The notes beneath the pieces were generated by a model, which saw nothing but the letters and a program-made list of their open reading frames with translations, was not told the origin of the DNA and did not search any database. Below are positions 17,885-39,780 of a stretch of DNA of 64,000 nucleotides, one piece after another (the stretch's first letter is position 1; each line of letters opens with the position of its first letter). The stretch covers positions 687-64,686 of the forward strand of contig JASJDL010000001.1 of assembly GCA_030065775.1 (NCBI GenBank), written 5' to 3'. The position numbers and the translations under genes are program-made. This DNA is from Flavobacteriaceae bacterium. GTDB taxonomy: Bacteria > Bacteroidota > Bacteroidia > Flavobacteriales > Flavobacteriaceae.

Positions 17885-17898
17885 GTAACTTTTATTAC
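17885..17898 (-). promoter_or_regulatory. GTAAC-N4-GTTAC box upstream of the yeeE/yedE pair (one mismatch)
   Basis: GTAACTTTTATTAC; -7-like TTCTTTTG on the minus strand at 17855-17862, offset 30. Confidence 0.7.
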
Positions 17899-19266: not shown

Positions 19267-19280
19267 GTAACTTTTGTTAC
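19267..19280 (-). promoter_or_regulatory. GTAAC-N4-GTTAC box upstream of sqr
   Basis: GTAACTTTTGTTAC; -7-like TACATTTA at 19237-19244 (minus strand), offset 30. Confidence 0.85.
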
Positions 19281-21329: not shown

Positions 21330-21343
21330 GTAACTTAAGTTAC
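21330..21343 (-). promoter_or_regulatory. GTAAC-N4-GTTAC box, distal fadL-like promoter
   Basis: TGTAACTTAAGTTACA perfect palindrome; -7 TAGATTTG at 21300-21307, offset 30. Confidence 0.88.
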
Positions 21344-21353
21344 ACAGGATGAG

Positions 21354-21986: not shown

Positions 21987-22015
21987 TCTTATAGTCTCAT
22001 TCTTTATATAGTAAA

Positions 22016-22041
22016 ATGAGTAACCGCTGAAGGTTACTCAT
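22016..22041. terminator. Hairpin between the PDO-rhodanese gene and the methyltransferase
   Basis: ATGAGTAACC-GCTGAA-GGTTACTCAT 10-bp stem, with a short T-run on the minus strand. Confidence 0.6.
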
Positions 22042-22068
22042 TATGATATGCTAATTTTTTTACATAGT

Positions 22069-23478
22069 TTACAATGTGCTTGGACACACGTAATCAGTCA
22101 TTTCTACACCAGCTTCTTTCATTGCTTTATACCCACCGGCCACATCAATTATATTATGAATTCCTCTGCTTTTCAGGATAGATGCTGCTACAATGCTTCT
22201 GTAGCCGCTAGCACAATGCACATAGAAATTTTCTTTATCGGGAAATTCCGCTAAATGATCATTTAAGAAGTCGAGAGGTGTATTATTGGCGTCAACCACA
22301 TGCTCTGACTGAAATTCTCCTTTTTTACGTACATCAAATACTTTTATTTTTTCTGCGTCCATGGCTTCTTTGAAAGCATCCGCCGAAATAGACGTTAGTG
22401 TATCATATTCTTTTGAGGCGTTTTTCCATGACTTAAAACCACCTTTTAAATAACCTAATGTGTTGTCAAAACCAACTCGGGAGAGTCTGGTAACAGCTTC
22501 TTCTTCTCTTCCTTCAGGAGTCACAAGTAAAATGGGTTGCTGCACATCGGCTATTAATGCGCCCACCCAGGGGGCGAAACTTCCGTCAAGGCCTATGAAA
22601 ATGGATCTTGGAATATGTCCTTCTGTGAATTCAGTTTTGCCACGTACATCCAAAACCACGGCATCTGTTTCATTGGCGGCTGCCTCAAAAGCATCTGGTG
22701 ATAATGCCTGTGTACCGCGCTTGATGACCTCATCAATATCAGCATATCCTTCTTTATTCATTTTGACATTTAATGGAAAATATGCTGGTGGCGGTAACAA
22801 GCCTTCCGTTACTTCTTCAATAAATTCTTCCCGCGTCATGTTTGCACGAAGGGCATAATTAGTTTTTTTCTGATTACCTAAAGTATCAACTGTTTCCTTA
22901 CTTAGGTTTTTACCGCATGCTGAACCGGCTCCATGCGCTGGATATACGATGACATCATCGGCTAACGGCATAATTTTAGAGCGCAGGCTGTCGAATAAAG
23001 TACCAGCCAATTCCTCTTGGGTCATATCGGCAGCTTTTTGAGCGAGATCGGGTCTTCCCACATCACCTAAAAATAGAGTATCTCCACTAAAAATCGCATG
23101 ATCTTTACCATCCTTATCTCGTAATAAATACGTAGTACTTTCCATGGTATGGCCTGGGGTATGTAGTGTAACAATCGTACTATCTCCAAGTTTAAATTCC
23201 TGACCGTCTTTCGCTATAATCGCGTCAAAACTAGGGTTCGCATTTGGACCATAAATAATAGGTGCACCTGTCTCCTTCGATAAAGTAACATGACCACTTA
23301 CAAAATCGGCATGAAAATGTGTTTCGAAGACATATTTGATAGTGGCATTGTTCTTTCTTGCCTTATCAATATATGGTTTTACTTCTCGTAAAGGGTCTAT
23401 GATGGCCACTTCACCATTACTTTCAATATAATAAGCACCCTGAGCGAGGCAACCGGTATAAATCTGTTCTATGTTCAT
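22069..23478 (-). CDS. MBL-fold persulfide dioxygenase fused to two rhodanese domains (CstB-like), copy 1
   Basis: ETHFHADFVSG, HTPGHT, GDTLF.GDVGRPDL, HGAGSACG, C-terminal rhodanese HCASGYRS. Confidence 0.9.
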   Translation of the reverse strand: MNIEQIYTGCLAQGAYYIESNGEVAIIDPLREVKPYIDKARKNNATIKYVFETHFHADFVSGHVTLSKETGAPIIYGPNANPSFDAIIAKDGQEFKLGDSTIVTLHTPGHTMESTTYLLRDKDGKDHAIFSGDTLFLGDVGRPDLAQKAADMTQEELAGTLFDSLRSKIMPLADDVIVYPAHGAGSACGKNLSKETVDTLGNQKKTNYALRANMTREEFIEEVTEGLLPPPAYFPLNVKMNKEGYADIDEVIKRGTQALSPDAFEAAANETDAVVLDVRGKTEFTEGHIPRSIFIGLDGSFAPWVGALIADVQQPILLVTPEGREEEAVTRLSRVGFDNTLGYLKGGFKSWKNASKEYDTLTSISADAFKEAMDAEKIKVFDVRKKGEFQSEHVVDANNTPLDFLNDHLAEFPDKENFYVHCASGYRSIVAASILKSRGIHNIIDVAGGYKAMKEAGVEMTDYVCPSTL

Positions 23479-23534
23479 TATTCTTTATGCTTTAATTCTA
23501 GTGACAAAAATACTATAATAGATTTTTTGTATCA

Positions 23535-23548
23535 GTAACCAAAGTTAC
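23535..23548 (-). promoter_or_regulatory. GTAAC-N4-GTTAC box upstream of PDO-rhodanese copy 1
   Basis: GTAACCAAAGTTAC; -7 TATTTTTG at 23505-23512, offset 30. Confidence 0.88.
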
Positions 23549-23619
23549 ATAGGTTTATTCAATACCTGACTCAATACGATTAATTGCATTGGGCCAGGTT
23601 TACTGATTCACCGCAAAAA

Positions 23620-25032
23620 TTATAACATTGTGGTGGGGCAAATATACTCAGATTTTGGTACTGAAGTTTCTTTGATTTCGTCGAATCCTTCAGTGATATC
23701 TTTTATATCCTGCCAACCCCTTTGTTTTAAAATGGATAAAGCGATCATACTCCTGTAACCACTTCGGCAATGAAGGATAATTGGTTTATCTTTGGGTAGC
23801 TCAGCCAGGTGTTTATTGATCTCATTTAATGGAATATTGTAAGCACCTTCGACATGTTGTGAGTCATATTCACTTTTCTTACGAACATCAAAAACCAAAA
23901 GATCTTTAGTAAACATTTTTTCAAATTCTTTAACGCTTATTCTTCCAACAGTTTCAATTTCTTTACCTGCATTTTTCCAAGTATCAAACCCTCCTTTTAG
24001 GTAACCAATGGTGTGATCATAACCAACTCGGGATAAACGTGTAATAGCTTCTTCTTCTTTACCAGGATATGTTATCAACAAGATTTCTTGTTTCACATCA
24101 GGAATCATCTCACCTACCCACTGGGCGAAATTACCATCTAACCCAATATTGATACTGTTTGGAACGAATCCTTTAGCGAAGTCATCAGCATCTCTGGTGT
24201 CTAAGACCAAAGCGCCTGTTTCGTTAGCGGCAGCATCAAAAGCATCTGGGCTAAACAAATGACTTGCTCTGGTCATGACGGTATCCAGGCTGTCATATCC
24301 TTTTATGTTCATTAATACATTTTGAGGAAAGTATCCCGGAGGCGCTGTTAAACCAGTTAATAACTCTTCAATAAATTCCTCTTTAGTCATGTCTGCCCTC
24401 AACGCATAATTTACCTCTTTTTGATGGCCTAAAGTATCTGTGGTTTCTTTACTCATCATTTTACCACAAGCCGAACCGGCACCATGGTTAGGATACACGA
24501 TTAAATCATCACTTAAAGGCATAATTTTAGTTCTTAAGGAATCATATAAATGCCCTGCGAGTTTTCGCTCTGTAAGATCAGAAACAACATGCTGCGCAAG
24601 GTCAGGACGCCCTACGTCACCGATAAATAAGGTGTCACCTGTAATGATACCGTGTTCCTGATCATTTTCATCAATTAATAAGTATGTTGTACTTTCCATG
24701 GTATGCCCAGGAGTATGTATTACTTTGACTTTGTAATTACCGACATTAAAAATCTGGCCGTCTTTTGCAACTGTGGCTTCATAGCCTGGTTTAGCAGTTG
24801 GTCCAAAAACAATTTCAGCTCCGCTCTTTTTTCTTAGATCCAGGTGCCCACTTACAAAATCTGCGTGGAAATGTGTTTCAAAAACATATTTTATCTCTGC
24901 ATTATCAATTTGTGCTCTGTCAATGTAAGGTTGTACCTCACGTAAAGGGTCGAAAACCGCTGCCTCACCATTATTCTCTATATAATATGCGGCGTGCGCT
25001 AAACATCCGGTATAAATTTGTTCTACTTTCAT
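23620..25032 (-). CDS. MBL-fold persulfide dioxygenase fused to two rhodanese domains (CstB-like), copy 2
   Basis: Same motifs as copy 1; rhodanese loop HCRSGYRS; ATG at 25032 (MKVEQIYTGCL) by homology to copy 1. Confidence 0.9.
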   Translation of the reverse strand: MKVEQIYTGCLAHAAYYIENNGEAAVFDPLREVQPYIDRAQIDNAEIKYVFETHFHADFVSGHLDLRKKSGAEIVFGPTAKPGYEATVAKDGQIFNVGNYKVKVIHTPGHTMESTTYLLIDENDQEHGIITGDTLFIGDVGRPDLAQHVVSDLTERKLAGHLYDSLRTKIMPLSDDLIVYPNHGAGSACGKMMSKETTDTLGHQKEVNYALRADMTKEEFIEELLTGLTAPPGYFPQNVLMNIKGYDSLDTVMTRASHLFSPDAFDAAANETGALVLDTRDADDFAKGFVPNSINIGLDGNFAQWVGEMIPDVKQEILLITYPGKEEEAITRLSRVGYDHTIGYLKGGFDTWKNAGKEIETVGRISVKEFEKMFTKDLLVFDVRKKSEYDSQHVEGAYNIPLNEINKHLAELPKDKPIILHCRSGYRSMIALSILKQRGWQDIKDITEGFDEIKETSVPKSEYICPTTML

Positions 25033-25089
25033 TTTTATTTTTTTAAAAATTATATCTACGAAAGTTACCAGCAATTATTATTATATACA

Positions 25090-25103
25090 GTAACTTTAGT
25101 TAC
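25090..25103 (-). promoter_or_regulatory. GTAAC-N4-GTTAC box upstream of PDO-rhodanese copy 2
   Basis: GTAACTTTAGTTAC; -7-like TAACTTTC at 25060-25067, offset 30. Confidence 0.87.
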
Positions 25104-25129
25104 ATTCCAAAGAAGAGTAAAACAAAATG

Positions 25130-26878
25130 CTATTTATTGGTCTGCCGAATGTATTTGTGGAATTTATCGGGCTTTTCCTTCCCTTCTTTCATGATTGAAT
25201 AGGCGTCAACTGCTTCCTGAATACTCATGAAACAATTATCGTAACCCAGAATGTTCATTACACCCCCTTTGTCTAGGGCATCCCTTACGGGGCCTTTAAT
25301 TCCTGAAAACACCACTTGAATGTTCTGACCACCGTAATATTCTAAGACTTCAATTAAGGTATGAACACCGGTACTATCAATGGTATTCATACTTTCGCAA
25401 TCAATAATAATGAGTTGGAGCGCCGGACCTTTTTCTACCACTAATTCCTCTAATGTATCTTTAAAAAAAGTAGTGTTTGCGAAATATAATTGGGCATCAA
25501 ACCGTACGATCAAAATATCATCTTTTACGATTACATCCTTACCAAAGCGTTCTACATTTCTATAAAAATGTGTCCCATGTATGTTTGCCAATACCGCCAC
25601 ATGTGGCCTGGTGGTTTTCAGAATGACCATGACTAAAGAAAGAATGACACCCACACCAATTCCTTTTTCGATACCAAGAGTTAAGGTAGCGAAAAAAGTG
25701 GCAAGCAGCAGAAAGAAATCAGTTCTATTGCTTTTCCACAAGTACAACACTTCCTTATAATCGATCAGCCCGAAAACAGCCACCATGATAACCGCAGCCA
25801 GAATTGATTTTGGAAGATTGTGAAAATAAGGCGTTAAAAATAAAAGTGTTATTACAATAAGGATGGCACTGACGACTGATGCCATAGTTGTTTTAGCGCC
25901 AGCCTGATCACTTACGGCTGTCCTTGAAAATCCACCTGTCGTAGGATAGGATTGAAAAAAAGAACCTATGATATTGGCCAGACCTAATCCTATCAATTCC
26001 TGGTTTGGTACCACTTTGTAGTCTCTGTGTTTTAATTGGATCGCCTTCGCCACAGCGATGCTTTCCATAAAACTGACGAATGCAATGGTAGCAGCCATTG
26101 GTAAAAGTATATTTATGACCTTTAGATCAAACGAAGGAATGCTAAAACCTGGTAATGAACTGGGGATTTCACCAACGATCTTAACAGGATTGTTCCCCTG
26201 ATTGAGCCCAAAAATAGATACGGCTAATATTCCAAATACAACAGCAAGTAGTTGACTCGGAAAACCTTTCTTTATTTTTTTAGATAGTATTATAATCAAG
26301 ATTCCAATACTTCCAATTCCAAAGGATATCCAGTTAATTTCATCGAATTTACTAATTGCATTCAACAAAATCTCATGGATATGGTGTGACCTTGGTATGT
26401 CTATGCCCAATAAACTTTTTAACTGACTAAGCCCAATAATGAGGGCTGCCGCTGATGTAAAGCCACTTATGACCGGGTGAGAGAGAAAATTGACCAGAAA
26501 ACCAAGCTTGAAAATCCCTAATAGAAACTGAATGGCACCTACTAGAAAAGCTAAAATGATCGCATACATAATGTATTGTTCTATTGTAATGCCTTCAAAT
26601 GAGCTAATGGCTGTGGCCGTTAATAAGGATACCATAGCTACGGGCCCAACAGCAAGTTGTCTGGAGGTGCCAAGTAGCGCATAAATTAATAAAGGAACAA
26701 TCGAAGCGTACAAACCATAAACTTCAGGTAGACCGGCAATGGAAGCATAGGCCATACCTTGCGGAATCAACATAATACCAACTGTTAACCCGGCGCCAAT
26801 ATCGCCTTTCAGCCAACTTCTCTTATAATTGGGGGCCCATTCTAAAACTGGCAGTATCGATTTCAACGAAATTTTCAT
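25130..26878 (-). CDS. SulP/SLC26 anion transporter with STAS domain
   Basis: IPQGMAYA...GLP..YGLY, GGFSRTAV, LYFAN, IDSTG. Confidence 0.93.
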   Translation of the reverse strand: MKISLKSILPVLEWAPNYKRSWLKGDIGAGLTVGIMLIPQGMAYASIAGLPEVYGLYASIVPLLIYALLGTSRQLAVGPVAMVSLLTATAISSFEGITIEQYIMYAIILAFLVGAIQFLLGIFKLGFLVNFLSHPVISGFTSAAALIIGLSQLKSLLGIDIPRSHHIHEILLNAISKFDEINWISFGIGSIGILIIILSKKIKKGFPSQLLAVVFGILAVSIFGLNQGNNPVKIVGEIPSSLPGFSIPSFDLKVINILLPMAATIAFVSFMESIAVAKAIQLKHRDYKVVPNQELIGLGLANIIGSFFQSYPTTGGFSRTAVSDQAGAKTTMASVVSAILIVITLLFLTPYFHNLPKSILAAVIMVAVFGLIDYKEVLYLWKSNRTDFFLLLATFFATLTLGIEKGIGVGVILSLVMVILKTTRPHVAVLANIHGTHFYRNVERFGKDVIVKDDILIVRFDAQLYFANTTFFKDTLEELVVEKGPALQLIIIDCESMNTIDSTGVHTLIEVLEYYGGQNIQVVFSGIKGPVRDALDKGGVMNILGYDNCFMSIQEAVDAYSIMKEGKEKPDKFHKYIRQTNK

Positions 26879-26936
26879 GAATTAATTTGTAAGGAATTCT
26901 CGATGGCAAAGATACTCCTAAACAGAGTTATTATTT

Positions 26937-26950
26937 GTAACTATTGTTAC
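26937..26950 (-). promoter_or_regulatory. GTAAC-N4-GTTAC box upstream of SulP
   Basis: GTAACTATTGTTAC; -7 TATCTTTG at 26907-26914, offset 30. Confidence 0.88.
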
Positions 26951-26957
26951 TTGCTAT

Positions 26958-28682
26958 TCAAAGGACCTCATGGCACTCTTTAAATGCCTTTTTAGTACAG
27001 GGTTGTTTTAGTTGGTTATGAATTGCTATAATCGCACTTCTTTTATCCTTAAAGAAGATGTGTTCACCTACACGTTTCTTGAAGCCTCCGGTTTCCAGCA
27101 CATCCTGACTTACGAGTTTTAGTCCTGCGATATAAATCCCACCACGATGTTCTTTCCACTTGAGCATTTCATAGGTTAACCATTCTGCAGCAGCCAAGTC
27201 AATGAAATTTATGCCGTCAGCGGCAATGAGTACATAGTCAATTTTATTTTCATCGTATAAGTTCGCAAAAAAGTCTGCAATTTTTTCAATAGACCCAAAA
27301 TATAGTGATCCGTCAATGCGCACGATTTTCATACTCGAACACTCTTTTGCTTCCGAATCTCGAATGGTATTTACCAAGCGTCCCTTCTCATCTAGTGCTA
27401 AAATGGCGATGTTCGGTTTGGAGGTTCTTTCAAGATAAAAGAAGAATGAAGTAATGATTCCGGCCAATAATGCAAATTCGAGATCAAAGAAAAGCGTTCC
27501 AACCAGTGTAACTGTTAAGACGATAACTTCCTTACCACTACTTTTGTATACTTGTTTTATATGATGAAAATCTATAAGATTATAACCAACAAGAAGAATA
27601 ATTCCACCCATGGTCGCCTTTGGTAAATATGCTGCATAACCTGCCAGTGTTAGTACCACAGCCATTAGTAAAATGGAGGCGAAGATTGCTGCCATTGGGG
27701 TTTTGGCCCCGGCTTGATGATTCACGCCAGAGCGCGTGAAGGAGCCTGATCCGGCATAACTTGAAAAGAAACTAGCTATTAAATTAGAGAGTCCTTGACC
27801 GATAAATTCTTGATTACCATCAATTTTTTGATGTGTTTTTAAGGCAATTGCCCGTCCTATCGCAACGGCTTCTATAAGCCCGAGCAGTGCAAGTACCATC
27901 GCTCCCGAGCTTAATTTCTGAACATTTTCAATAGTCAATTCAGGAATTCTGAATGGAGGCAGGTTTGAAGGCACATTACCAACAGTTTCAATCCCTTGTT
28001 GTTCCCCGCCCATTAACAGTGCTAAAACACTTCCCAATACCATGGCGATCAACATATAATATCGCGAAAGCGGTTTTATAAGGTGCTTAATTACTAAAGC
28101 TACCAGTAAAGTGCCTATAGCCACAATAAAAACATTCCAATTCGTGCTTGATATATTTTCGGCTATATGGGTAATGATCTCCAAAATGGTACTTCCCTGA
28201 GGAACTTTAATGGCAAATACATGGCTTAATTGTTTGAATGCGATGAGTATACCGGCCCCTGCGGTAAATCCTATAATCACTGAATGTGAAACGAAATTTA
28301 CAAGCTTGCCCATTTTCATTAACCCCATCAAAAATTGGAAAAGACCAGTAAGAAAAGTTAAAACCAGGGCCATTGAAACAAACATTTCAACATCACTTTC
28401 GGGGTTTAGATTCAATTTTACGAGTGTAGCATATACAACGATTGAAATAGCTGTAGTTGGCCCGGAAATTAAATGATAAGATGAGCCAAATAAAGCAGCG
28501 ATGATAGGAGTGATCATAGCAGTATAAAAACCATAAATTGGAGGGAGGCCTGCAATTATGGCGAAAGCTACAGCTTGTGGAATTACAATAACTGTTCCGG
28601 TAATGCCAGCAATCAGATCATCTTTCCATGTGGTTTTGACTTTTGGAAGCCATAACAGAAAAGGAAACAGTTTACTAAGCAT
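26958..28682 (-). CDS. SulP/SLC26 anion transporter with STAS domain (in the molybdoenzyme operon)
   Basis: IPQAVAFA.IAGLPP.YG, SGSFTRSGVN, GSLYFG, INFIDL. Confidence 0.93.
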   Translation of the reverse strand: MLSKLFPFLLWLPKVKTTWKDDLIAGITGTVIVIPQAVAFAIIAGLPPIYGFYTAMITPIIAALFGSSYHLISGPTTAISIVVYATLVKLNLNPESDVEMFVSMALVLTFLTGLFQFLMGLMKMGKLVNFVSHSVIIGFTAGAGILIAFKQLSHVFAIKVPQGSTILEIITHIAENISSTNWNVFIVAIGTLLVALVIKHLIKPLSRYYMLIAMVLGSVLALLMGGEQQGIETVGNVPSNLPPFRIPELTIENVQKLSSGAMVLALLGLIEAVAIGRAIALKTHQKIDGNQEFIGQGLSNLIASFFSSYAGSGSFTRSGVNHQAGAKTPMAAIFASILLMAVVLTLAGYAAYLPKATMGGIILLVGYNLIDFHHIKQVYKSSGKEVIVLTVTLVGTLFFDLEFALLAGIITSFFFYLERTSKPNIAILALDEKGRLVNTIRDSEAKECSSMKIVRIDGSLYFGSIEKIADFFANLYDENKIDYVLIAADGINFIDLAAAEWLTYEMLKWKEHRGGIYIAGLKLVSQDVLETGGFKKRVGEHIFFKDKRSAIIAIHNQLKQPCTKKAFKECHEVL

Positions 28683-28746
28683 TCACAAATGTATTGATTC
28701 TATGATTTGATTGAAAATGAAATCCCGCTTAAGCGGGAAGATCATT

Positions 28747-31656
28747 TTAATTAGTATCACTTATAAAATAGCATCCACCTTCTATTTTATCGGGCGTAAA
28801 TGCTCTTTTAAACCATAATGGACGTCGTTCACCATTAGGTCCGGGGGCAGGTCGAGTCATTGATAGCCATTCTTTATAAATCTCATGTGATTTATTAGTA
28901 TCTACAACTATGTCACCGTAGTTTTCGTTAGGCCCGGGCTTCTCAATTCGAACACGCTGATGCCAGCAATGCATACCACTAATGGGGTCGGGATGTACGG
29001 CATGCGTGATATTTTGGTGTACACCACCATCTTTCCAAAAGATACGTTTCGAATCACTATCTTCAGATTCAAATGGTTGTATTCCCGAAAGCGTATTCAT
29101 ATGCCATTTACCTTGTCCGTCATTTTCAATATTAACAGTATTAGTGGCCCATCTATTTCCTATTTTATCTTGTGTTCTTCGCCATCTTCCTATGTGATGT
29201 GAGCAGGCAACTACACCTGGTTTCATACTTTGAGTCACCCATACTTTATCAATGAAGTAGCCAATATCTGTATTCATTTTGACTAAGTCCCCTGTTTTAA
29301 ATCCCCATTTAGCCGCGTCTTCCGGATGCATCCAGATCGGATTTCTATTGGAGATCTCCACCAGCCATTTGGCATTTCCCGATCGTGTATGAATTAAAGT
29401 TGGTAACCTGAAGGTAGGTACTAACACGTATTCACCTTTAGATTTGTCCAGGTGATCACTATGAATATGGCTTTTTATGTATTGGGGAATCGCATATTCG
29501 GGCCATTTCCAATCAACCATGGTTTGTGAATAGAATTCATTTTTTCTGGAAGGAGTAGGAAAGCCAACAACCGCCTTTCCTTTGATTAACACGCCAATAG
29601 CTTTTCCTTCTTTATAAACTACATCGGTTTTTTTATCGATAGTTGAACCTTCGAGCTGTTGCTCTGTTAATAGGGTTTCATTTACTTTATAAGACTCTCC
29701 CTGTTCTATTTCATAGGCTCCATATTTTTGCATATAGTTCAACTCTGCAAAAGGACCGGTAAAGCCATCAGCTTTAGCTGCTTCTGGTAGACCATTTACC
29801 CGTTCAAAAATGTATTGATAGTATTCTTCAATGGTGATTTTTTCTCCAGGCCGGTAAGGTGATTCAAAATGTTTACGGATACCCATACTGCCGTCTGGAT
29901 CAATGCGCCACGAAAGTTCAATCCAAAATTCATCTTCCTCCCAAACTTCTCCCGGATTTGCCTGGTAAGTATATTCAACAGGATTTCCATTTCTACGGGC
30001 AGCTTCCCTGAGCACGGGTTGCCTAAAGGCCACCCAGGTTCCACCATGTGTAGCATAGGAGTTGATGTCATGTCGCTCTGAAGCTAAGCCCATGGGTAGT
30101 ACAAAATCTGCATAAAAAGCCGTTTCATTCCAGGTGGGTGTCAAGGCGGCATGCACGCCGAATTTATCTTCATCAGTTAATTGTTCAATCCATGTAAATC
30201 CGTCGGGATAGGTCCATACAGGATTAAATACCCTTGTAAAATAAACATCCATTTTACCACGGCCTTCCTTGAGAAAATGAGGTAATAACTGACTCATTTC
30301 AAAAAAGGCGAGTGGGTACTCTCTTGGGAAATGTAGCTCATTCCACTTTTTATGAGGTTCAGGAGGATTTGGTTGTGTAGGGCTAAACTTATTCCATGAA
30401 TTCGGTGAAGTACCCCCTTTTGTACCTACAGCGCCGGTTAATACTGTTAAGAAATGTAAGCATCGTGCGACACACCAGCCCCCTAAATTTGATGCTCCAG
30501 CAGCGCGCCAGTTATGTGATGCGAATCGCTCTCCGGCTTTGCCAATTTCTCTGGCTATTTCTATGATTGTCGAAGCCTTAACACCAGATTCTTTTTCGGC
30601 AAATTCAGGCGTAAATTCTTTATATTCTTCGATCATCGAACTTATGTAGTTCTCAAAAGTCACTTTTTTCTTCGGATGCCTGGCCTCCAAATATTCCTTC
30701 CAATTTGTCCAATTTTCTAGATATTCTCTATTGTATAGCCCTTCTTTTAGAATGATTACTGCCATAGCCAATAAAACGGCAGCCTCGGTTCCGGGATAAG
30801 TGGGAAGCCAATAATCAGACATTGAAGCCGTATTTGATAATCTTGGGTCCATCGTGGCCAGCTTGGCGCCTTTCATTTTGCCTTCAATGATGCGTTGTGC
30901 ATGCGGATTAAAATAATGCCCAGACTCTAAGTGGGCAGATACCAATAAGATGAATTGGGCATTGGCATGGTCTGGTGATGGGCGATCGTAACCATACCAT
31001 ATATTATAGCCGAATCGCGCTCCCGATGAACAAATATTGGTATGCGAATTGTGACCATCGATTCCCCATCCTTGTAAAATCCAGTTCATGAATTTTTCAT
31101 GCCCTGGACGCCCAACATGGTATGCAACTTCGTTATGACGATCTTCTTTGATGGCTTTTCTAATTCTTGTTGAAAGCGTATCCAATACTTCATCCCATGT
31201 TACCCGTTCCCATTCGCCATCACCTCTTTTTCCTTTTCGTTTTAGAGGGAATAATATCCGGTCGGGATCTTTAATTTGATTGATTGTCGCGGGCCCTTTA
31301 GCGCAATTCCTGCCTCGACTTCCGGGATGATGAGGATTCCCCTCAAATTTCTTGACTTCCTGGGTTTCTTTCTCAATAAATGCTGTTAAGCCACAAGCAC
31401 TCTCGCAATTAAAACAAGTAGTCGGTACGATCTGATAGGTCTTTTTAACCTTTTTTGGCCATGCTTTGGGATCGTATTCGATCCAATTATCCCAGGTCTC
31501 AGGAGAGGGAAAATTTTCATACATTTCTGCGATTTCTTCATCGCTAAATTTCCGCATGTCTTGATCAGTCTCCTGGCGATTATCTTTGTGTAGATTTGGA
31601 ATGACCCCTAACTTTTCTGCTATGTTTTCGATGAATGAAGGTTTTTTATATCCCAT
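28747..31656 (-). CDS. Molybdopterin (bis-MGD, DMSO reductase family) oxidoreductase catalytic subunit, Psr/Soe/Arr-like, no Tat signal
   Basis: TTCFNCESAC...NCAKG FS0 cluster, DPDRILFPLKR.G.RG.G.WERVTWDE, SHTNICS putative Cys ligand, ETA.YAD.VLP, MHPEDA..G..GD.V; no RRxF motif. Confidence 0.9.
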   Translation of the reverse strand: MGYKKPSFIENIAEKLGVIPNLHKDNRQETDQDMRKFSDEEIAEMYENFPSPETWDNWIEYDPKAWPKKVKKTYQIVPTTCFNCESACGLTAFIEKETQEVKKFEGNPHHPGSRGRNCAKGPATINQIKDPDRILFPLKRKGKRGDGEWERVTWDEVLDTLSTRIRKAIKEDRHNEVAYHVGRPGHEKFMNWILQGWGIDGHNSHTNICSSGARFGYNIWYGYDRPSPDHANAQFILLVSAHLESGHYFNPHAQRIIEGKMKGAKLATMDPRLSNTASMSDYWLPTYPGTEAAVLLAMAVIILKEGLYNREYLENWTNWKEYLEARHPKKKVTFENYISSMIEEYKEFTPEFAEKESGVKASTIIEIAREIGKAGERFASHNWRAAGASNLGGWCVARCLHFLTVLTGAVGTKGGTSPNSWNKFSPTQPNPPEPHKKWNELHFPREYPLAFFEMSQLLPHFLKEGRGKMDVYFTRVFNPVWTYPDGFTWIEQLTDEDKFGVHAALTPTWNETAFYADFVLPMGLASERHDINSYATHGGTWVAFRQPVLREAARRNGNPVEYTYQANPGEVWEEDEFWIELSWRIDPDGSMGIRKHFESPYRPGEKITIEEYYQYIFERVNGLPEAAKADGFTGPFAELNYMQKYGAYEIEQGESYKVNETLLTEQQLEGSTIDKKTDVVYKEGKAIGVLIKGKAVVGFPTPSRKNEFYSQTMVDWKWPEYAIPQYIKSHIHSDHLDKSKGEYVLVPTFRLPTLIHTRSGNAKWLVEISNRNPIWMHPEDAAKWGFKTGDLVKMNTDIGYFIDKVWVTQSMKPGVVACSHHIGRWRRTQDKIGNRWATNTVNIENDGQGKWHMNTLSGIQPFESEDSDSKRIFWKDGGVHQNITHAVHPDPISGMHCWHQRVRIEKPGPNENYGDIVVDTNKSHEIYKEWLSMTRPAPGPNGERRPLWFKRAFTPDKIEGGCYFISDTN

Positions 31657-31668
31657 TTTAATGAAGTA

Positions 31669-33285
31669 TTAAGCGAGTGGTATTCTTTGAGGTGCTTCAA
31701 CCCAAATTTTTTCTGTAAAATAAATTCCTAAGAATATCGATAAAGCAGCAAGTGTTAACGTTGCTGTTGTAGGTTGGATGAATAGCAATACCAATGGTAG
31801 CACGTTACCTATTATAAGGGATCCCACCCAAAACAATGTTTTATACCTACCTGATGTGATCATTTTAACGACACTTTTTGCAGCAGTAGTAGCGTGTGTG
31901 GTTGTTAGTTCTGTTATCAACGTAAAAAGATTTACTAATAAGGCCCCAATTAAAATTGGCTTTAAGATTAGCATCCAGGATTCACTTCCTGCAATAAACC
32001 CGATGAAAATAAAGACAGCAGCACCCGCCATGATACTATGAACTAACATGTGTAGCACGAGTGAAGGACTTTGCCAGAAATCCCTTCCTTTGGCCTGAGC
32101 GAAAAGAAACGCTGTATATGTTGCTAAAAGAACTGCAAAAACTGCAGTGACCCATAGCAAGGGTTTTTCAGGGATCGTCCAATTAAAATAGGTGGCCGCC
32201 CCCCATAATGTTACCAGTAGTCCAAAGATGGTAATGGTATAGCCTCCTTTCACCAACCATGAGTTCCATTGCGGCCGTAATAAGACATATAAAAATCTGT
32301 CGGGCCTGTCTAAATCTAGAACTAGAAATAATCCTGTTAAAGCCAAAAAGAACAAAGAAACACCTACTGACCATAATTTGGTCGTGTCAGATAAATCATA
32401 TCCAACTAATAGGGCCACAAAAGGAATTAAAAAAGTCCCGGCAGCAATAGCTTTTGTAATGACATAGGCTATTACCTCCCAACCCCATAATATACCTTTA
32501 TCAGGAGTATCATAGACTCTTCTTGCCGAACCATTTAATACGTCAATATAATTTGGATTTTCAGACTCCTTTCGTTGGTAAGCTGCTTCGATTTCATTGT
32601 CTATGGATAGCTGCAACAAATCAATATCATCATTCGTATTGATCATTTTTTCGGCTGCTTTGGCGAAATGGCCAACGCCCCTTGCCTGGGAATTCCAAAG
32701 TCCGGGCCCGGACGGATGTGTAGCTTCAGGATTTAAAGAAGCCTCATCACCGTCTATGTAGTATAAATTTGGATGTGTACCTTTTTCGGGTTTTCTAACC
32801 TTAACCTGCTGCCGCGCCAATAATTGTGAAATTTCGGTTTGTGGATTTTCCATATCGCCTGCAATTATTGCATGTTCAGGGCAAACACTTACACAGGCAG
32901 GCTCCCGGCCAACATCAACGCGATGTGCACAATAGTTACACTTTGCAGCTGTGTGGGTTTCAGGATCAATATATAGGGCATCATACGGACAAGCTTGCAT
33001 ACACGATTTACACCCGATACATCTGTCATTGTCGAAGTCTACGATGCCATCATCTCTGACATATAAGGCCTCTACAGGGCAAATTTCCACACATGGGGCA
33101 TCAGTACAATGATTGCACCGCATTACCGAAAATATTCTTCGGGTATTTGGAAATTGACCTTTTTCTACTTGTTTTACATACGTACGATTAACTCCTACAG
33201 GAACATCATGCTCGGATTTACAGGCTGTAGTACAGGCATGACAACCGATACACTTTCGATTGTCAATTATAAATCCATATTTCAT
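31669..33285 (-). CDS. Fused 4x[4Fe-4S] ferredoxin (NrfC/PsrB-like) and NrfD/PsrC-like 8-TM anchor
   Basis: CIGCHACTTAC, CNHC..APC..ICP, CIGCKSC..ACP and CNYC...PAC...CP motifs, then WG..V..Y, DLDRPDRF and about 8 TM helices. Confidence 0.92.
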   Translation of the reverse strand: MKYGFIIDNRKCIGCHACTTACKSEHDVPVGVNRTYVKQVEKGQFPNTRRIFSVMRCNHCTDAPCVEICPVEALYVRDDGIVDFDNDRCIGCKSCMQACPYDALYIDPETHTAAKCNYCAHRVDVGREPACVSVCPEHAIIAGDMENPQTEISQLLARQQVKVRKPEKGTHPNLYYIDGDEASLNPEATHPSGPGLWNSQARGVGHFAKAAEKMINTNDDIDLLQLSIDNEIEAAYQRKESENPNYIDVLNGSARRVYDTPDKGILWGWEVIAYVITKAIAAGTFLIPFVALLVGYDLSDTTKLWSVGVSLFFLALTGLFLVLDLDRPDRFLYVLLRPQWNSWLVKGGYTITIFGLLVTLWGAATYFNWTIPEKPLLWVTAVFAVLLATYTAFLFAQAKGRDFWQSPSLVLHMLVHSIMAGAAVFIFIGFIAGSESWMLILKPILIGALLVNLFTLITELTTTHATTAAKSVVKMITSGRYKTLFWVGSLIIGNVLPLVLLFIQPTTATLTLAALSIFLGIYFTEKIWVEAPQRIPLA

Positions 33286-33366: not shown

Positions 33367-33380
33367 GTAACAAAAGTTAC
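33367..33380 (-). promoter_or_regulatory. GTAAC-N4-GTTAC box upstream of the molybdoenzyme operon
   Basis: GTAACAAAAGTTAC; -7-like TATATTTA at 33336-33343, offset 31. Confidence 0.85.
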
Positions 33381-33438: not shown

Positions 33439-34074
33439 CTAGTCTAAATTAATGACCTCAATATTATTTCTGTGAAGTTCTATTTTATCTTGATTTTCAA
33501 GTTTCTTCAATAATCTTGAAACCACAACCCTTGATGTATGGAGTTCGTACGCAATTTGCTGATGTGTATTGTGAATAATATTATCTTCCGATATTCTAGA
33601 TTTTTCTTTTAGGTATTTTAACAAGCGCTCATCCATATTCAAAAAAGCGATGCTGTCTATAGTTTCGAGCATTTCATTGAGTCGGTTGTGATAACTTTCG
33701 AAAACAAAATTTCTCCAGCTTTTGTATTTGGCCGACCATTCCTCCATTTTTCGAACAGGAATCATAATAAGCTTAGTATCAGTTTCGGCAATAGCGCGAA
33801 TTTCACTTTTTGTTTGTCCTAAGCAACATGTAAGCGTCATGGCACAGGTATCACCTTTTTCCAAAAAATATAAAAGTAATTCATCGCCGTCATTATCTTC
33901 CCGCAATATTTTAATTGCTCCTGAGATCAATAAGGGTATCGATTTAATATAATCTCCAATTTCAATCATTTTGTGTCCTTCGGGAACTTCTTTGAAAGTT
34001 CCCACCTGATTTATTTCTTGAATAAGGGCGTCTTCGAAAAGATGACCATAATTCATTTTTAGCTCCTCAACCAT
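33439..34074 (-). CDS. Crp/Fnr family transcriptional regulator
   Basis: cNMP-binding-like domain with CAMTLTCC, RLL.YL, HTH THQQIAYELHTSRVVVSRLLKKLE. Confidence 0.93.
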   Translation of the reverse strand: MVEELKMNYGHLFEDALIQEINQVGTFKEVPEGHKMIEIGDYIKSIPLLISGAIKILREDNDGDELLLYFLEKGDTCAMTLTCCLGQTKSEIRAIAETDTKLIMIPVRKMEEWSAKYKSWRNFVFESYHNRLNEMLETIDSIAFLNMDERLLKYLKEKSRISEDNIIHNTHQQIAYELHTSRVVVSRLLKKLENQDKIELHRNNIEVINLD

Positions 34075-34308
34075 GACCTAAAGTTATAACAAATTATAAG
34101 ATAATTTAGATACACTTTTTCATTTGTACTAATAACAGGGACAAATACAGACCAAAATTATTTGTGTACACAAGGATTAATGGATCAAAAGTTTATAGAT
34201 AGATGTTGTTCAATCAACAACTCTTAATTATTGATAAATTTTTTAAGAAATTTTTAAGATGTAGAGTTGGAAAATATTTTTATTATTGCGTTCAATACCA
34301 AACAGAAA

Positions 34309-34680: not shown

Positions 34681-36261
34681 ATGTTAAAAACTATTAAGAG
34701 TGACTTGCCAGCGAGCATAGTCGTATTTTTTGTTGCAATACCGTTGTGTCTGGGTATTGCATTAGCAAGTGGGGCACCACTTTTTTCAGGACTCATTGCA
34801 GGTATCATTGGTGGAATAGTTGTAGGGTCCATAAGTGGTTCAAAAATTGGTGTCAGTGGCCCGGCAGCAGGTCTAGCTGCCATTGTGCTGGCGGCCATAG
34901 CAACATTGGGTGGATTCGAGAACTTTTTGGTTGCTGTCGTTTTAGGAGGCATCATACAAATAGTGTTTGCCGTACTGAAGGCGGGAGTCATTGGCTATTA
35001 TTTTCCTTCCTCAGTAATCAAGGGGATGTTAACAGGAATTGGAATCATTATCATTTTGAAACAAATTCCTCATTTCTTTGGCTATGACGCTAGTCCTGAA
35101 GGTAATTTTGCTTTTTTTCAGGTTGACGGTGAAAATACATTTTCAGAAATACTGAAGACATTCAATTATATACAGCCAGGTTCAGCTTTGATCGGGTTAA
35201 TAGGACTGATAATTCTAATTCTATGGGAAAAAGTTTTATCGAAAAAAGCAAAAATATTTCAACTTGTACAAGGGCCATTGGTCGCTGTAGTACTAGGAAT
35301 TGTTTTTTATGTAATTACAAAATCAAACGAATTTCTCGGAATTGGTTCAACGCACTTGGTGAGCATTCCAGTACCTGAAGACGCATCATCTTTTCTTGCT
35401 CAGTTTAGTTTTCCCAATTTTGCGGCAATAACCAATCCCGATATTTGGATAGTTGCCTTTACATTGGCATTGGTTGCCAGTTTGGAAACACTGTTGTGCG
35501 TTGAGGCAACCGATAAACTAGATCCGCACAAAAATGTCACACCAACAAATAGAGAGTTATTTGCTCAAGGAACCGGGAATATCATTTCAGGTATGATCGG
35601 CGGATTACCGATTACCCAGGTGATTGTACGAAGTTCTGCAAACATTCAATCAGGGGGCAGGTCTAAGCTATCGGCCATTATTCATGGATTTTTCTTATTA
35701 ATTTCAATCGTACTGATTCCCAGGCTGTTAAATATGATACCCTTATCGGTACTCGCAGCCATTTTATTATTGGTTGGTTATAAGCTTGCGAAACCAGCTC
35801 TGTTCAAACAAATGTATGATTTGGGTTGGAAGCAATTCATTCCTTTTACTGTAACCGTGCTCGGAATCATCTTTACGGATTTATTGATAGGAATCGGAAT
35901 GGGACTAGCAGTAGGAATTGTGGTAATCCTTATAAAGAGCTACCAAAATTCACATTTCCTGCATATTGAAGATAAGAGTAATGGAAAGCACAAGATTAAA
36001 ATGACATTAGCTGAGGAAGTAACGTTTTTTAACAAAGGGGCTATACTCAAAGAACTGGATAGCTTACCACTTGATACCTTTCTTGAGCTTGATGTTCGTA
36101 AGACGCGTTATCTGGACAATGATATCATCGAGATTCTGGAAGACTTTGCCTTTAAGGCAAAAGAAAGAAATATCGATATCAAATTGATTTCAGAAAGAGG
36201 GGTTGCTGAAAACCCTGATAGTTTTATACAATTCTTTAAACTAAGGCCAAAGGTCGCTTAA
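34681..36261 (+). CDS. SulP family anion (probably bicarbonate) transporter
   Basis: PLCLGIALASGAP, SGPAAGL, TQVIVRSSAN; this clade is typically linked to carbonic anhydrase. Confidence 0.9.
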   Translation: MLKTIKSDLPASIVVFFVAIPLCLGIALASGAPLFSGLIAGIIGGIVVGSISGSKIGVSGPAAGLAAIVLAAIATLGGFENFLVAVVLGGIIQIVFAVLKAGVIGYYFPSSVIKGMLTGIGIIIILKQIPHFFGYDASPEGNFAFFQVDGENTFSEILKTFNYIQPGSALIGLIGLIILILWEKVLSKKAKIFQLVQGPLVAVVLGIVFYVITKSNEFLGIGSTHLVSIPVPEDASSFLAQFSFPNFAAITNPDIWIVAFTLALVASLETLLCVEATDKLDPHKNVTPTNRELFAQGTGNIISGMIGGLPITQVIVRSSANIQSGGRSKLSAIIHGFFLLISIVLIPRLLNMIPLSVLAAILLLVGYKLAKPALFKQMYDLGWKQFIPFTVTVLGIIFTDLLIGIGMGLAVGIVVILIKSYQNSHFLHIEDKSNGKHKIKMTLAEEVTFFNKGAILKELDSLPLDTFLELDVRKTRYLDNDIIEILEDFAFKAKERNIDIKLISERGVAENPDSFIQFFKLRPKVA

Positions 36262-36272
36262 AAACAAAAAAA

Positions 36273-37097
36273 ATGGATCAAAAAAAATATAAAATACTCT
36301 TACTTTCAAGTTTAAAAAAGACCGACGTAACGGTGTTGAAAAGTACTGTGAATTTAGCACGGATCATGAACGCCGATATCAATATGTTCTATGTAAAGAA
36401 GCCGCTGGAAATTGTGAAAAAAGAAAGTCATTTGTCGGCAATGAGAATCATTAATAAGGAGTATGCCACGATCGATACCGAAATTAAGAAAATGATTGCT
36501 CCTTTTCGAGATGGTTCAGGTGTTACAATACAAACAGATTTTGTCTTTGGTAACGTAAAAAAAGAAATTGCTAATTACATTAATGAAGTCAACCCTGATA
36601 TGATTGTTATCGGCAAAAGAAAATCCAATGGTTTCAAATTTATAGGAGATAAGATTACAGAGTTTGTACTTAAGAACTACCATGGAATGGTATTAATTGC
36701 CGCTAATAATAACAGTCTGGAACTTAAAGAAGACTTAAAATTAGGTACCTTGAATTTTGATGAAGAAGCATTAAATCTTGGCTTTGCCAAGAACTTCGTC
36801 GAACAGACTAGGTTACCTTTAAAATCCTTTAAGATTGTAGAGAAATCAACAGGTCAACGAACCCGGGCTCCTCAGAACAACTCGAAAGCTGGCATTGATT
36901 ATGTTTTTGAACAAAATGACAATGTATTAGATAATTTATCAAATTACTTGTCAAAGAATAACATCGATTTGCTCTTAGTGAACCGAAACGATAAGAAGGG
37001 ATCAAGCGATTTTTTAAAATCTCAGTTCAAAGGATTAATTGATAAAAGTAATGTGTCCATGTTCTTACCAGGAACTGAGGCCTATGAATTAAATTAA
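36273..37097 (+). CDS. Universal stress protein (USP) domain protein
   Basis: GNVK.EI..YI....PDMIVIGKRK...IGD..TEFVLK. Confidence 0.8.
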   Translation: MDQKKYKILLLSSLKKTDVTVLKSTVNLARIMNADINMFYVKKPLEIVKKESHLSAMRIINKEYATIDTEIKKMIAPFRDGSGVTIQTDFVFGNVKKEIANYINEVNPDMIVIGKRKSNGFKFIGDKITEFVLKNYHGMVLIAANNNSLELKEDLKLGTLNFDEEALNLGFAKNFVEQTRLPLKSFKIVEKSTGQRTRAPQNNSKAGIDYVFEQNDNVLDNLSNYLSKNNIDLLLVNRNDKKGSSDFLKSQFKGLIDKSNVSMFLPGTEAYELN

Positions 37098-37262
37098 TAT
37101 GTTTAATATTATTAATTAATAATTAAACAAAAATTTAACAAGTTCATTGAAAATTTGGAACAATATCAATAATTAATTTAAGAATAAATAAATTTTAAAT
37201 TTATAGTGCTATTTTGGTCTTTTGATTATTTTTAGGATCAAATTCAAATCAAACAGGACTAT

Positions 37263-39140
37263 ATGAAAAATTTATTTACGAACATCAAAGGTGATGCGTT
37301 TGGTGGTATCACGGCCGGCATTGTTGCATTACCGTTGGCTTTGGCCTTTGGTGTATCATCAGGTTTAGGGCCAAGTGCCGGATTGTATGGTGCTATTTTT
37401 ATTAGCTTTTTTGCTGCTCTTTTTGGTGGCACAAATACCCAAATATCTGGGCCAACCGCACCAATGACCGCCGTAAGTATGGTCATCATCGCCACGATTA
37501 TTGCCGCGAACGATGGTGATGTTAACAAAGCCTTACCCGCAATTTTGGCCATATTCTTGTTAGCCGGATTAATGCAAATTGGACTTGGGGTAATTGGTCT
37601 TGGTAAATATATTCGATATATACCGTATCCTGTAGTCTCCGGTTTTATGACGGCAATTGGTGTCATCATTCTGGTCACACAAATTTTGCCTTCATTGGGA
37701 TATTATCCTAAAGAAGACGCTGAGTATGTCGGTCAGTACAAAGTACAGGCCGAAGAAGTGATATTGGAAAATATTTTGAAAGAGGAAGCAGGAGAAGACA
37801 TTCTGGTACTCGAAGATTTTCAAGAAACCATTAACAGGGCGAGTCAGGTTACCGAAGCTGATATCTTGAAGGAATCGCAGACCTTAGCTGCGAAGGATGC
37901 CTCCGGTGTTGTTGGTGCTCTTAAAGTCTTACCGAGAGCACTTCAAAATATTAGTTGGTTAGAAGTAGTACTGGCATTAGGTACAATCATTATAATTTAT
38001 GGCTTTAAGCGTATAACAACCGTGGTGCCCAGTACCCTGGTAGCGCTATTGGTAATGACAGGTATCGCCATTGGCTTTGGCCTGGATTACCGCCCTATTG
38101 AGAAAATCCCTGAAGGCTTGCCCAAATTCAGAATGGATATTTTTACAGGGTTCAGCCTAGGAAGCATTACTCCATATTTCTTTACGGCATTGACCCTGGC
38201 CTTGTTAGGAGCTATAGACTCTTTATTGACGAGTGTAGTGGCAGATAACATGACCAAGACCAAGCATAAACCCGATAAAGAATTGGTAGGTCAAGGTATT
38301 GGAAATAGTGTTGCTGCTCTCTTTGGCGGAATACCCGGAGCAGGTGCAACGATTCGTACGGTCGTAAACATTAATTCTGGTGGTAAAACCAGATTGTCAG
38401 GTATGATTGCCGGTCTATTATTATTTGTCATCTTATTGGCAATTGCTCCTTTGGCTTCCAGAATCCCGGCGGCTGTTCTGGCCGGAATCTTAATAACGGT
38501 TGGGATCGGTGTGATGGATTATAAAGGATTACGCGCTATTCCGGCATTACCTAAGGATGGTAAAATTGGCCCGTTCAAATTCAGTATGGAAGTTGTTATT
38601 ATGTTGGTAGTGTTGATTCTTTCTACGTTCTGGAACCTGGTATACGCTGTGGGTATCGGATTGGTCATTGCATCTTTAATGTTCATGAAGAAAATCGGTG
38701 ATTTGACTGCAGAACGCTCTGACGTAAAAACACTGAAAAAGGAGAGATTCTGGAAAGACGAAGAAGATTTTCCAGAAGAGTACAAAGAAAAAGTGTTCAT
38801 CAAACATATTAAAGGGCCCTTATTTTTTGGTTCTACCAGTGACTTCCAGGCATTAGCACAACAAATACCCGCGACAGCTAACACCGTAATTATGCGATTA
38901 GACCGTATGCAGTATATGGATCAGTCAGGCCTCTATGCCATGGAAGACATGCTGTTAGATTTAAGGAAAAAAGAAGTTGAAGCCCTCTTCGTTGGAATGC
39001 TACCCCAACCAAGATATATGATGGAACGCATTGATATTATTCCTGATTTTATACCCGAAGAACACATTTTCGAAACTTTTGATGAATGTGTTGCTTGGAT
39101 TAAAGAAAATATAAATAACAATAAGAATAACAATAAGTAA
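37263..39140 (+). CDS. SulP family transporter, BicA-like, with STAS domain
   Basis: GD.FGGITAGIVALPLALAFG, QISGPTAPM, GAGATIRTVVN, GPLFFG. Confidence 0.92.
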   Translation: MKNLFTNIKGDAFGGITAGIVALPLALAFGVSSGLGPSAGLYGAIFISFFAALFGGTNTQISGPTAPMTAVSMVIIATIIAANDGDVNKALPAILAIFLLAGLMQIGLGVIGLGKYIRYIPYPVVSGFMTAIGVIILVTQILPSLGYYPKEDAEYVGQYKVQAEEVILENILKEEAGEDILVLEDFQETINRASQVTEADILKESQTLAAKDASGVVGALKVLPRALQNISWLEVVLALGTIIIIYGFKRITTVVPSTLVALLVMTGIAIGFGLDYRPIEKIPEGLPKFRMDIFTGFSLGSITPYFFTALTLALLGAIDSLLTSVVADNMTKTKHKPDKELVGQGIGNSVAALFGGIPGAGATIRTVVNINSGGKTRLSGMIAGLLLFVILLAIAPLASRIPAAVLAGILITVGIGVMDYKGLRAIPALPKDGKIGPFKFSMEVVIMLVVLILSTFWNLVYAVGIGLVIASLMFMKKIGDLTAERSDVKTLKKERFWKDEEDFPEEYKEKVFIKHIKGPLFFGSTSDFQALAQQIPATANTVIMRLDRMQYMDQSGLYAMEDMLLDLRKKEVEALFVGMLPQPRYMMERIDIIPDFIPEEHIFETFDECVAWIKENINNNKNNNK

Positions 39141-39144
39141 AACT

Positions 39145-39780
39145 ATGGCAACAAAAAATATAGCAATAACAAAAGATATGCAGGCGGCTTTAACACCATC
39201 GGCCGTTTTGCAAGATTTATTAGAAGGTAATAATCGATTTACAAGCGGCAGTTCAGATACTCTTGACAATGCGTCCTTGATCAGCCAAACAACCGGGGGG
39301 CAATTTCCCAAGGCCGTGATCTTATCATGTATTGATTCGCGTGTTCCTGTTGAAACAGTTTTTGATCAGGCGATAGGTGATATTTTCGTAGCACGTGTGG
39401 CAGGAAATTTTGAAAATACCGATATCTTAGGTAGTATGGAATATTCTTGCAAAGTAGCCGGAAGTAAATTAGTGCTTGTACTGGGTCATGAGGCATGTGG
39501 TGCTGTAAAGGCCGCATGTGACGGTGTGGAGCTTGGAAATATTACTGCTTTATTGAGTAATATATTACCGGCTGTTAAAGTATCGTCTGATCAGGTTGAT
39601 GGAGAATTGAATTCATCAAATTCAACATTTGTCGCCAAAACCGTTGAGAATAATGTGAAGCTCACCATAGAAAGGATACGAGAAAAGAGCCCTATTCTTA
39701 AAGAAATGGAAGCCAATGGAGAAATTGAAATCGTTGGTGGCGTTTACAGTTTACAGACCGGTAAAGTTGAAATGCTTTAA
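39145..39780 (+). CDS. Beta-class carbonic anhydrase
   Basis: LSCIDSRVP, RVAGN and GHEACGAV zinc ligands. Confidence 0.95.
   Translation: MATKNIAITKDMQAALTPSAVLQDLLEGNNRFTSGSSDTLDNASLISQTTGGQFPKAVILSCIDSRVPVETVFDQAIGDIFVARVAGNFENTDILGSMEYSCKVAGSKLVLVLGHEACGAVKAACDGVELGNITALLSNILPAVKVSSDQVDGELNSSNSTFVAKTVENNVKLTIERIREKSPILKEMEANGEIEIVGGVYSLQTGKVEML

Follow-up and report, generated by a model that had tools for sequence, protein, structure and literature searches.

Which protein reads the palindromic box that recurs in front of the sulfur genes at this locus, and which signal does it convey to them? The window, i.e. the whole stretch of 64,000 nt analysed here from a Flavobacteriaceae genome, carries a sulfur island whose genes from 16859 to 33285 all lie on the minus strand, and next to it, on the same strand, a Crp/Fnr-family regulator gene with an ORF of 211 aa (33439..34074). 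The earlier note had proposed that this regulator is the cognate activator of the island and that it may sense reactive sulfur through its cysteines.

Promoter boxes of the sulfur island

The island comprises a split YeeE/YedE pair (16859-17836), an SQR-like flavoprotein (17963-19210), a FadL-like outer-membrane protein (19689-21128), two persulfide dioxygenase-rhodanese fusions (PDO-rhodanese; 22069-23478 and, the second fusion, 23620-25074) and a SulP permease (25130-26878), besides a methyltransferase, a second SulP and a molybdopterin oxidoreductase with a fused FeS-NrfD subunit. The window contains six exact copies of GTAAC-N4-GTTAC (0.03 expected) plus one copy with a single mismatch at 17885. 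The exact copies are found in the promoters of the FeS-NrfD/Mo-oxidoreductase/SulP unit (GTAACAAAAGTTAC at 33367..33380, 23 nt upstream of TATATTTA on the minus strand), the SulP permease 25130-26878 (26937..26950, 22 nt to TATCTTTG), the PDO-rhodanese 23620-25074 (25090..25103, 22 nt to TAACTTTC), the PDO-rhodanese 22069-23478 together with the methyltransferase (23535..23548, 22 nt to TATTTTTG), the FadL-like protein (21330..21343, 22 nt to TAGATTTG) and the SQR-like flavoprotein (19267..19280, 22 nt to TACATTTA), and the one-mismatch copy GTAACTTTTATTAC of the split YeeE/YedE pair (17885..17898) lies 22 nt upstream of a degenerate -7-like TTCTTTTG. The distance from the box to the Bacteroidetes -7 element is therefore 22 nt in six of the seven island promoters and 23 nt once; three of the seven -7 elements match TAnnTTTG exactly and four differ from it by one or two bases. 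If the TA of the -7 element is taken as -12/-11, the box centre falls at about -41.5, the same box centre as in the class II geometry of Escherichia coli CRP. NtcA, too, has a documented box centre of -41.5 (PMC3898017).

Genome-wide, eight exact boxes were found (assembly of 2.84 Mb, 80% complete), six of them in the island and one in a coding region. The remaining copy, GTAACTTTTGTTAC at C92:16047, is an eighth promoter box outside the window, located 21 nt upstream of TAACTTTG and reading into a gene for a 148-aa DUF983-like Zn-ribbon membrane protein (C92:15555-16060). DUF983 genes adjoin relatives of the regulator in about ten other loci, and this DUF983-like gene is likely a member of the regulon.

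No box with up to two mismatches was found between 33381 and 36018, so the regulator's own promoter is boxless, and the earlier suggestion that the gene is not autoregulated holds in this genome at that mismatch level. Autoregulation appears lineage-dependent, given that a correctly placed box precedes the regulator gene in 14 of 78 orthologs and is absent in 64. In the divergent intergenic region, ∼90 nt upstream of the regulator's start codon, the sequence TTGTGTACACAA (34162-34173) is a perfect palindrome of 12 bp and could be a candidate site of a different regulator of this gene. On the regulator's other side, the plus-strand genes at 34681-39780 form a boxless cluster and encode a SulP, a tandem-Usp-like protein, a SulP with a STAS domain and a β-carbonic anhydrase; this SulP-carbonic anhydrase pairing suggests bicarbonate or another anion and not the sulfide regulon.

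Fold and family of the regulator

The effector domain, a cNMP-binding-like β-roll, matches PF00027 over residues 28-113 (33736..33993, minus strand) with 36.3 bits against a cut-off of 27.5, and residues 150-211 match PF13545 with 35.1 bits against 27. The helix-turn-helix (HTH), hit by PF13545 and PF00325, occupies residues 171-194 (33493..33564), and a central dimerisation (C) helix spans residues 118-144 (33643..33723). An AlphaFold2 model built on an alignment of 139 sequences was confident (pLDDT 90.9, pTM 0.82) and places strands within residues 26-106 and helices at residues 118-144, 171-177 and 182-194. In Foldseek comparisons the model superposed on CRP-cAMP, 3DV8, NtcA and FNR with TM scores of 0.75-0.83. 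The closest solved structure by a search of the subfamily profile against the PDB is 3DV8 (4e-43), followed by CRP (5e-22). With both the β-roll and the C-terminal Crp-type winged HTH present, the predicted protein is assigned to the Crp/Fnr superfamily.

Within that superfamily it scores far below the established families: 58.8 bits against a cut-off of 266 for CRP (NF008732) and 22 bits against 228 for FNR (NF008365). Sensing of cAMP was rejected on the replacement of the cAMP-contacting CRP residues E72 and R82 by M79 and K89. Residues 1-76 contain no Cys, so the regulator lacks an FNR-type cluster, in agreement with the earlier note, and FNR-type Fe-S sensing was discarded, the protein having zero N-terminal Cys and three Cys overall. 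R131 aligns with CRP R123 in the HMMER alignment, W120 and R131 are the majority residues at a level of at least 81% in every Cys class of the subfamily, and Y69 is conserved in every Cys class too. As judged from profile scores and diagnostic residues, the regulator is neither CRP, FNR, NtcA nor HcpR2. A match at E ≤ 1e-20 was obtained in 338 of 401 sampled genomes of the family Flavobacteriaceae.

Residue 183 covaries with the box

The recognition helix SRVVVSR, reported earlier from the translation, was confirmed at residues 181-187 (33514-33534), within the HTH. A set of 80 orthologous loci from many genera of Flavobacteriaceae, with 70-87% identity, was then compared. In nearly all of them PDO-rhodanese, YeeE, SQR, SulP or Mo genes flank the regulator, and in nearly all, one to six exact boxes flank it as well. 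A strict TAnnTTTG stands exactly 22 nt downstream of 98 of the 189 boxes of these loci, against a motif density of 0.0007 per position, and the extended box consensus is tGTAAC-N4-GTTACtg.

For covariation, 74 contexts across Bacteroidota were collected and sorted by residue 183, which aligns with CRP Glu181. A search of the phylum with P0145, a representative of the Glu type, yielded for the most part orthologs of the query and was used only as a source of distant loci. The 43 loci with Val183 (594 kb) hold 24 exact GTAAC-N4-GTTAC and one exact GTGAC-N4-GTCAC, and the 27 loci with Glu183 (352 kb) hold one and six, respectively; when up to one mismatch is allowed, the numbers become 62 GTAAC to 10 GTGAC for Val and 15 to 30 for Glu. 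As far as these counts go, residue 183 predicts the box, Val pairing with GTAAC and Glu with GTGAC, which is the CRP recognition code, and this covariation is the strongest new evidence that the adjacent gene encodes the cognate regulator. The Glu-type relatives, with helix SREVISR, comprise L118, L121, L126, L149, L151, L166 and others; GTGAC-N4-GTCAC boxes occur at their loci, some exactly 22 nt upstream of TAnnTTTG. By helix and box they are a second DNA-specificity branch of the same sulfur-linked family.

With the same sulfur genes and boxes recurring at the 80 loci and the box type tracking residue 183, the pairing of regulator and boxes claimed in the earlier note stands, and we regard it as highly likely that this protein is the cognate reader of the island boxes. 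It probably acts by class II activation and is very probably the class II activator of the seven island promoters. The competing reading, that the adjacent gene is not the box reader and that some other Crp-like protein binds GTAAC-N4-GTTAC, has few candidates, as only three proteins in the whole genome carry a Crp-type HTH over the cut-off. One of the two others is a receiver-domain fusion with helix TETLIR; the other, with helix SRPTLN (about 223-227 aa), is encoded at C42:328-999, where no obvious sulfur or hcp genes were found among its neighbours. In the C42 protein, Pro replaces CRP Glu181, as it does in HcpR2 regulators that have been predicted to use the same box (PMC1274295); however, it has Asn at the equivalent of R185, its contig shows no sulfur genes, and the adjacency of regulator and boxes in nearly all of 80 loci and the covariation of Val/Glu with A/G speak against it. 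We consider this reading very improbable.

Cys77 is the hallmark of the subfamily

All three cysteines of the protein fall in the segment CAMTLTCC of the effector domain, as the earlier note had seen, and form a C77-x5-C83-C84 cluster (33823..33846, minus strand; codons 33844-46, 33826-28 and 33823-25 for C77, C83 and C84, respectively). The HMMER alignment to CRP puts this cluster in the phosphate-binding-cassette region, pairing C77 with I70, A78 with G71, M79 with E72, C83 with F76 and C84 with E77, and K89-S90 with R82-S83 of the cassette that holds cAMP. In the model, C77 sits in the loop after the strand at 65-72, and C83 and C84 sit in a short helix at 80-86; the Cys-bearing residues 71-90 are also the least confident stretch, with pLDDT of 77 for 71-80 and 67 for 81-90.

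Conservation was scored on 142 representatives of 50%-identity clusters with 32-65% identity to the query. Of these, 139 have C77 and 130 have S90, compared with 75 for C83 and 80 for C84. Closer to the query the full cluster prevails, exactly three Cys being found in 72 of the 80 orthologs (three orthologs lack C84), and CAM is conserved across the three-Cys class. Thus the C-x5-CC cluster named in the earlier note does exist in this regulator, but subfamily-wide only C77 is near-invariant and C83 and C84 are clade-specific; on this alignment the hallmark of the family is C77 and not the cluster as a whole.

Several relatives depart from the three-Cys pattern. Two YeeE-linked relatives with 54-55% identity, one of the same genus, carry C77 alone and no exact box. 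In L165 (G014:C18:17196-17804, 54% identity), Phe replaces C77 while C83-C84 are kept; its neighbours include PDO, YeeE and DUF983 genes and one box. The gene is intact, as the reported TAA is its natural stop, and the pseudogene reading was dropped. Such a natural variant is useful for telling which cysteine matters. A sister branch from other Bacteroidota (L104, L106, L133-L154) has C77 only, in GESCIMSFLGGxH, with helix ARVVVSR; its members are mostly 203-212 aa long, are >80% identical across Chitinophagales, Sphingobacteriales, Flavobacteriales and Cytophagales, and often adjoin OsmC, thioredoxin, rhodanese or PDO genes. At seven Flavobacteriaceae loci (L007, L009, L022, L027, L030, L046 and L077), a second copy of the subfamily with 36-40% identity is located inside the sulfide island.

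Sulfur genes accompany the effector domain

To score linkage, tblastn was used to look for genes of PDO, rhodanese, SQR or YeeE up to 5 kb away from the regulator. Such genes accompany 29 of 33 members of the C77+C83+C84 class, 11 of 15 with C77+C83 and 11 of 21 with C77 only, as against one of 300 random 10.6-kb windows of this genome; the four misses in the C77+C83 class make up a separate group with 33-35% identity. Beside members from other families, one of which has a Glu-type helix, Pfam searches identified operons of rhodanese, thioredoxin, OsmC and rhodanese-thioredoxin genes. Sulfur linkage is thus common to both helix types and hence goes with the effector domain, not with the DNA site. 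The in-window regulon has sulfide, persulfide, sulfite and thiosulfate functions only, with no peroxidase or catalase, and the predicted target genes correspond to those governed by known dedicated sensors of sulfane sulfur.

Proposed mechanism and competing signals

Because of the site in the effector pocket, the conservation of C77, the sulfur linkage, the regulon content and the persulfidation of a Crp-like protein elsewhere, namely a heavily persulfidated one in Acinetobacter baumannii in vivo (PMC7315123), we infer that covalent sulfane-sulfur sensing at C77, with C83 or C84 as partner, is the best-supported mechanism. The regulator would be a dimer of the Crp/Fnr type that serves the detoxification of sulfide and sulfane sulfur as a class II activator, in which R182, V183, S186 and R187 of the recognition helix would read tGTAAC-N4-GTTAC centred at about -41.5. 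Its predicted targets are SQR, the two PDO-rhodanese fusions, the split YeeE, the two SulP, the cytoplasm-facing Mo enzyme, the FadL-like channel and the DUF983 protein, and the regulator gene itself would stay outside box control in this genome. As sulfide is oxidised, cellular persulfide or polysulfide may modify Cys77 in the effector pocket, at the place where CRP has its cAMP-contacting cassette, and the modified Cys77 would probably form a tri- or tetrasulfide bridge with Cys83 or Cys84. Such a bridge could stiffen the flexible cassette in the way that ligand binding does in CRP or NtcA, whereupon the DNA-binding domains would swing to the active position and RNA polymerase would be recruited.

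We put the chance that the regulator senses persulfide through its cysteines at about even. The fuller proposal stands somewhat short of even and is offered tentatively: that Bacteroidota add a fourth structural class to the dedicated sensors of reactive sulfur, namely a class II activator of the Crp/Fnr type persulfidated at C77, in which a bridge to C83/C84 in the three-Cys clade substitutes for the ligand and which has split into GTAAC (Val) and GTGAC (Glu) readers. Speaking against sensing by the C-x5-CC cluster, C83 and C84 are missing from about half of the subfamily, some YeeE-linked relatives have only C77, and PgRsp, the probable characterised relative taken up below, binds heme and has been tied to oxidative stress, not to sulfide (PMC6955866). 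The Phe77 relative L165 counts against the proposal too, as does the Pro of the C42 protein. The distant relatives beside thioredoxin and OsmC genes would fit a general thiol-redox signal too.

The main rival to persulfide sensing, unlikely in our estimate, is a heme-based sensor, in which the pocket would hold heme with Cys77, perhaps also Met79, as axial ligand, and sulfide binding or heme reduction would be the switch. In ferric CooA, Cys75 is an axial heme ligand, and the conservation of CAM in the three-Cys class fits such a role. PgRsp of Porphyromonas gingivalis purifies red, with Soret bands at 412 and 425 nm (PMC6955866); C77-only relatives fetched here have 207 aa with Cys76, Met78 and His85 in CIMSFLGGxH, numbered as in PgRsp, and 3DV8, the best modelling template of PgRsp, is by far the closest solved structure to the subfamily. 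Yet the C76A, M78A and H85A single variants of PgRsp bind heme like the wild type, and heme had no effect on its DNA binding in EMSA (PMC6955866). Furthermore, no His is conserved in the sensor domain of the three-Cys class, an N-terminal Pro or Ala ligand for heme is absent as well, and the membership of PgRsp rests on residue numbering and the shared template. A general sensor of thiol redox state or disulfide stress, in which oxidants would form a C77-C83/84 disulfide and induction by sulfide would be indirect, seems still less likely.

A Crp/Fnr protein of Lactobacillus casei, FLP, is reportedly activated by a disulfide, and thioredoxin, OsmC and rhodanese-thioredoxin genes do lie downstream of distant relatives. 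A PgRsp mutant is sensitive to oxidative stress (PMC6955866), and sulfane sulfur is itself reported to cause disulfide stress (PMC9163753). Against a general redox signal, however, peroxidase and catalase are absent from the window regulon and PDO, SQR and YeeE linkage dominates phylum-wide. The least likely of these three signals is a non-covalent one, whereby a small sulfur anion or a low-molecular-weight thiol or persulfide (thiosulfate, sulfite, or a bacillithiol- or CoA-type persulfide) would bind in the pocket as cAMP, 2-oxoglutarate and glutathione do in relatives, and the cysteines would only line it. The pocket does keep features of a ligand site, S90 (CRP S83) and R131 (CRP R123) being conserved in all Cys classes and K89 standing at the phosphate-binding R82 of CRP, and PrfA and Vfr are activated by glutathione, as cited in PMC7315123. 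A near-invariant Cys in a cytoplasmic regulator would nevertheless be unusual for a purely steric role, and no candidate ligand is singled out.

Implications

We know of no description of a sensor for sulfide or persulfide in Bacteroidota. Sulfide is common in the settings that this phylum dominates, namely marine particle degradation, sediments and guts. In the literature searched, neither a Crp/Fnr-type regulator of sqr or pdo genes nor a Crp/Fnr sulfane-sulfur sensor was found, and a Crp/Fnr-type sulfur sensor thus appears new to that literature. If covalent sensing is the true reading, the family would do in Bacteroidota what CstR, SqrR and FisR do in other phyla; if confirmed, an activator with a new fold would join the three known dedicated sensor classes, and covalent sulfur chemistry would replace the ligand in the classic CRP allosteric switch. 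The regulator together with its 14-bp box at a fixed 22-nt offset would then be a sequence marker for sulfide-response regulons in thousands of genomes. New here are the covariation of Val/Glu with A/G across Bacteroidota, which illustrates the CRP recognition code cleanly in nature, the controlled, phylum-wide sulfur-gene linkage by Cys class, and the distinction between a near-universal C77 and the clade features C83 and C84. The possible identity of PgRsp as a member would also show a virulence-linked regulator from an oral pathogen in a new light.

Comparison with known regulators

The nearest functional parallel in DNA reading is NtcA, which in structures with DNA reads its box through Arg186, Val187, Thr190 and Arg191 and in which Val187Glu abolishes binding (PMC11850224). 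By alignment, R182, V183, S186 and R187 of the regulator correspond to these four residues; both helices follow R-V-x-x-[T/S]-R, with Val in the place of CRP Glu181 as the discriminator, and the box fits GTA-N8-TAC near -41.5 in class II position (PMC3898017, PMC11850224). The NtcA comparison drawn in the earlier note therefore survives as a shared helix and box code and not as close kinship: identity is ∼23%, membership of the NtcA family was rejected at 42.2 bits against the TIGR03697 cut-off of 244.95, the pocket bears a Cys cluster, and the regulon concerns sulfur, that of NtcA nitrogen. Since Val recurs in a subfamily that is mostly Glu, the NtcA-like helix is best read as a parallel change.

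HcpR2, the Crp/Fnr regulators of hcp in Bacteroides, Clostridium and Thermotogales, have a predicted box, GTAACnnnnGTTAC, that is identical to the island box, and they too have Glu181 replaced (PMC1274295). They differ in having Pro at that position, where the regulator has Val183, and in a regulon of hcp and nitrosative stress; with Val instead of Pro and no hybrid-cluster-protein gene (hcp) among the island genes scanned, assignment to HcpR2 was rejected. 3DV8, a Crp/Fnr protein of Eubacterium rectale from structural genomics, shares the C-x5-C spacing. With this closest structure and its conserved cassette-region Cys, the regulator fits a 3DV8-like Crp subfamily of Bacteroidota and Firmicutes. 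PgRsp, modelled on that template, has 207 aa, and its Cys76, Met78 and His85 were examined as possible heme ligands (PMC6955866). Because its residue numbering (207 aa; C76, M78, H85) and template match those of the CIMSFLGGxH relatives, PgRsp is probably a member of the C77-only branch. A homologue search with a C77-only relative gave no P. gingivalis protein among the 120 matches listed, so its membership stays inferred. It lacks C83 and C84, and the published account makes it a redox regulator that binds heme and controls hmu, bcp and itself, with no link to sulfide (PMC6955866).

The dedicated persulfide sensors known so far are CsoR-, ArsR- and Fis-type proteins, as the earlier note had stated and as a 2026 review agrees: CstR (CsoR), SqrR/BigR (ArsR) and FisR (Fis), which mostly work through conserved Cys pairs of their sensor part (PMC13467558). 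Their targets are sqr, pdo-rhodanese, sulfurtransferase and sulfite/thiosulfate transporter genes (PMC13467558), and the present regulator is likened to them, on boxes and gene adjacency only, in its predicted control of sqr, pdo and sulfurtransferase genes. Its Crp/Fnr fold is unrelated to theirs. Whereas modification releases the repressors CstR, SqrR and BigR, and FisR activates with σ54, the regulator described here would be a σA class II activator.
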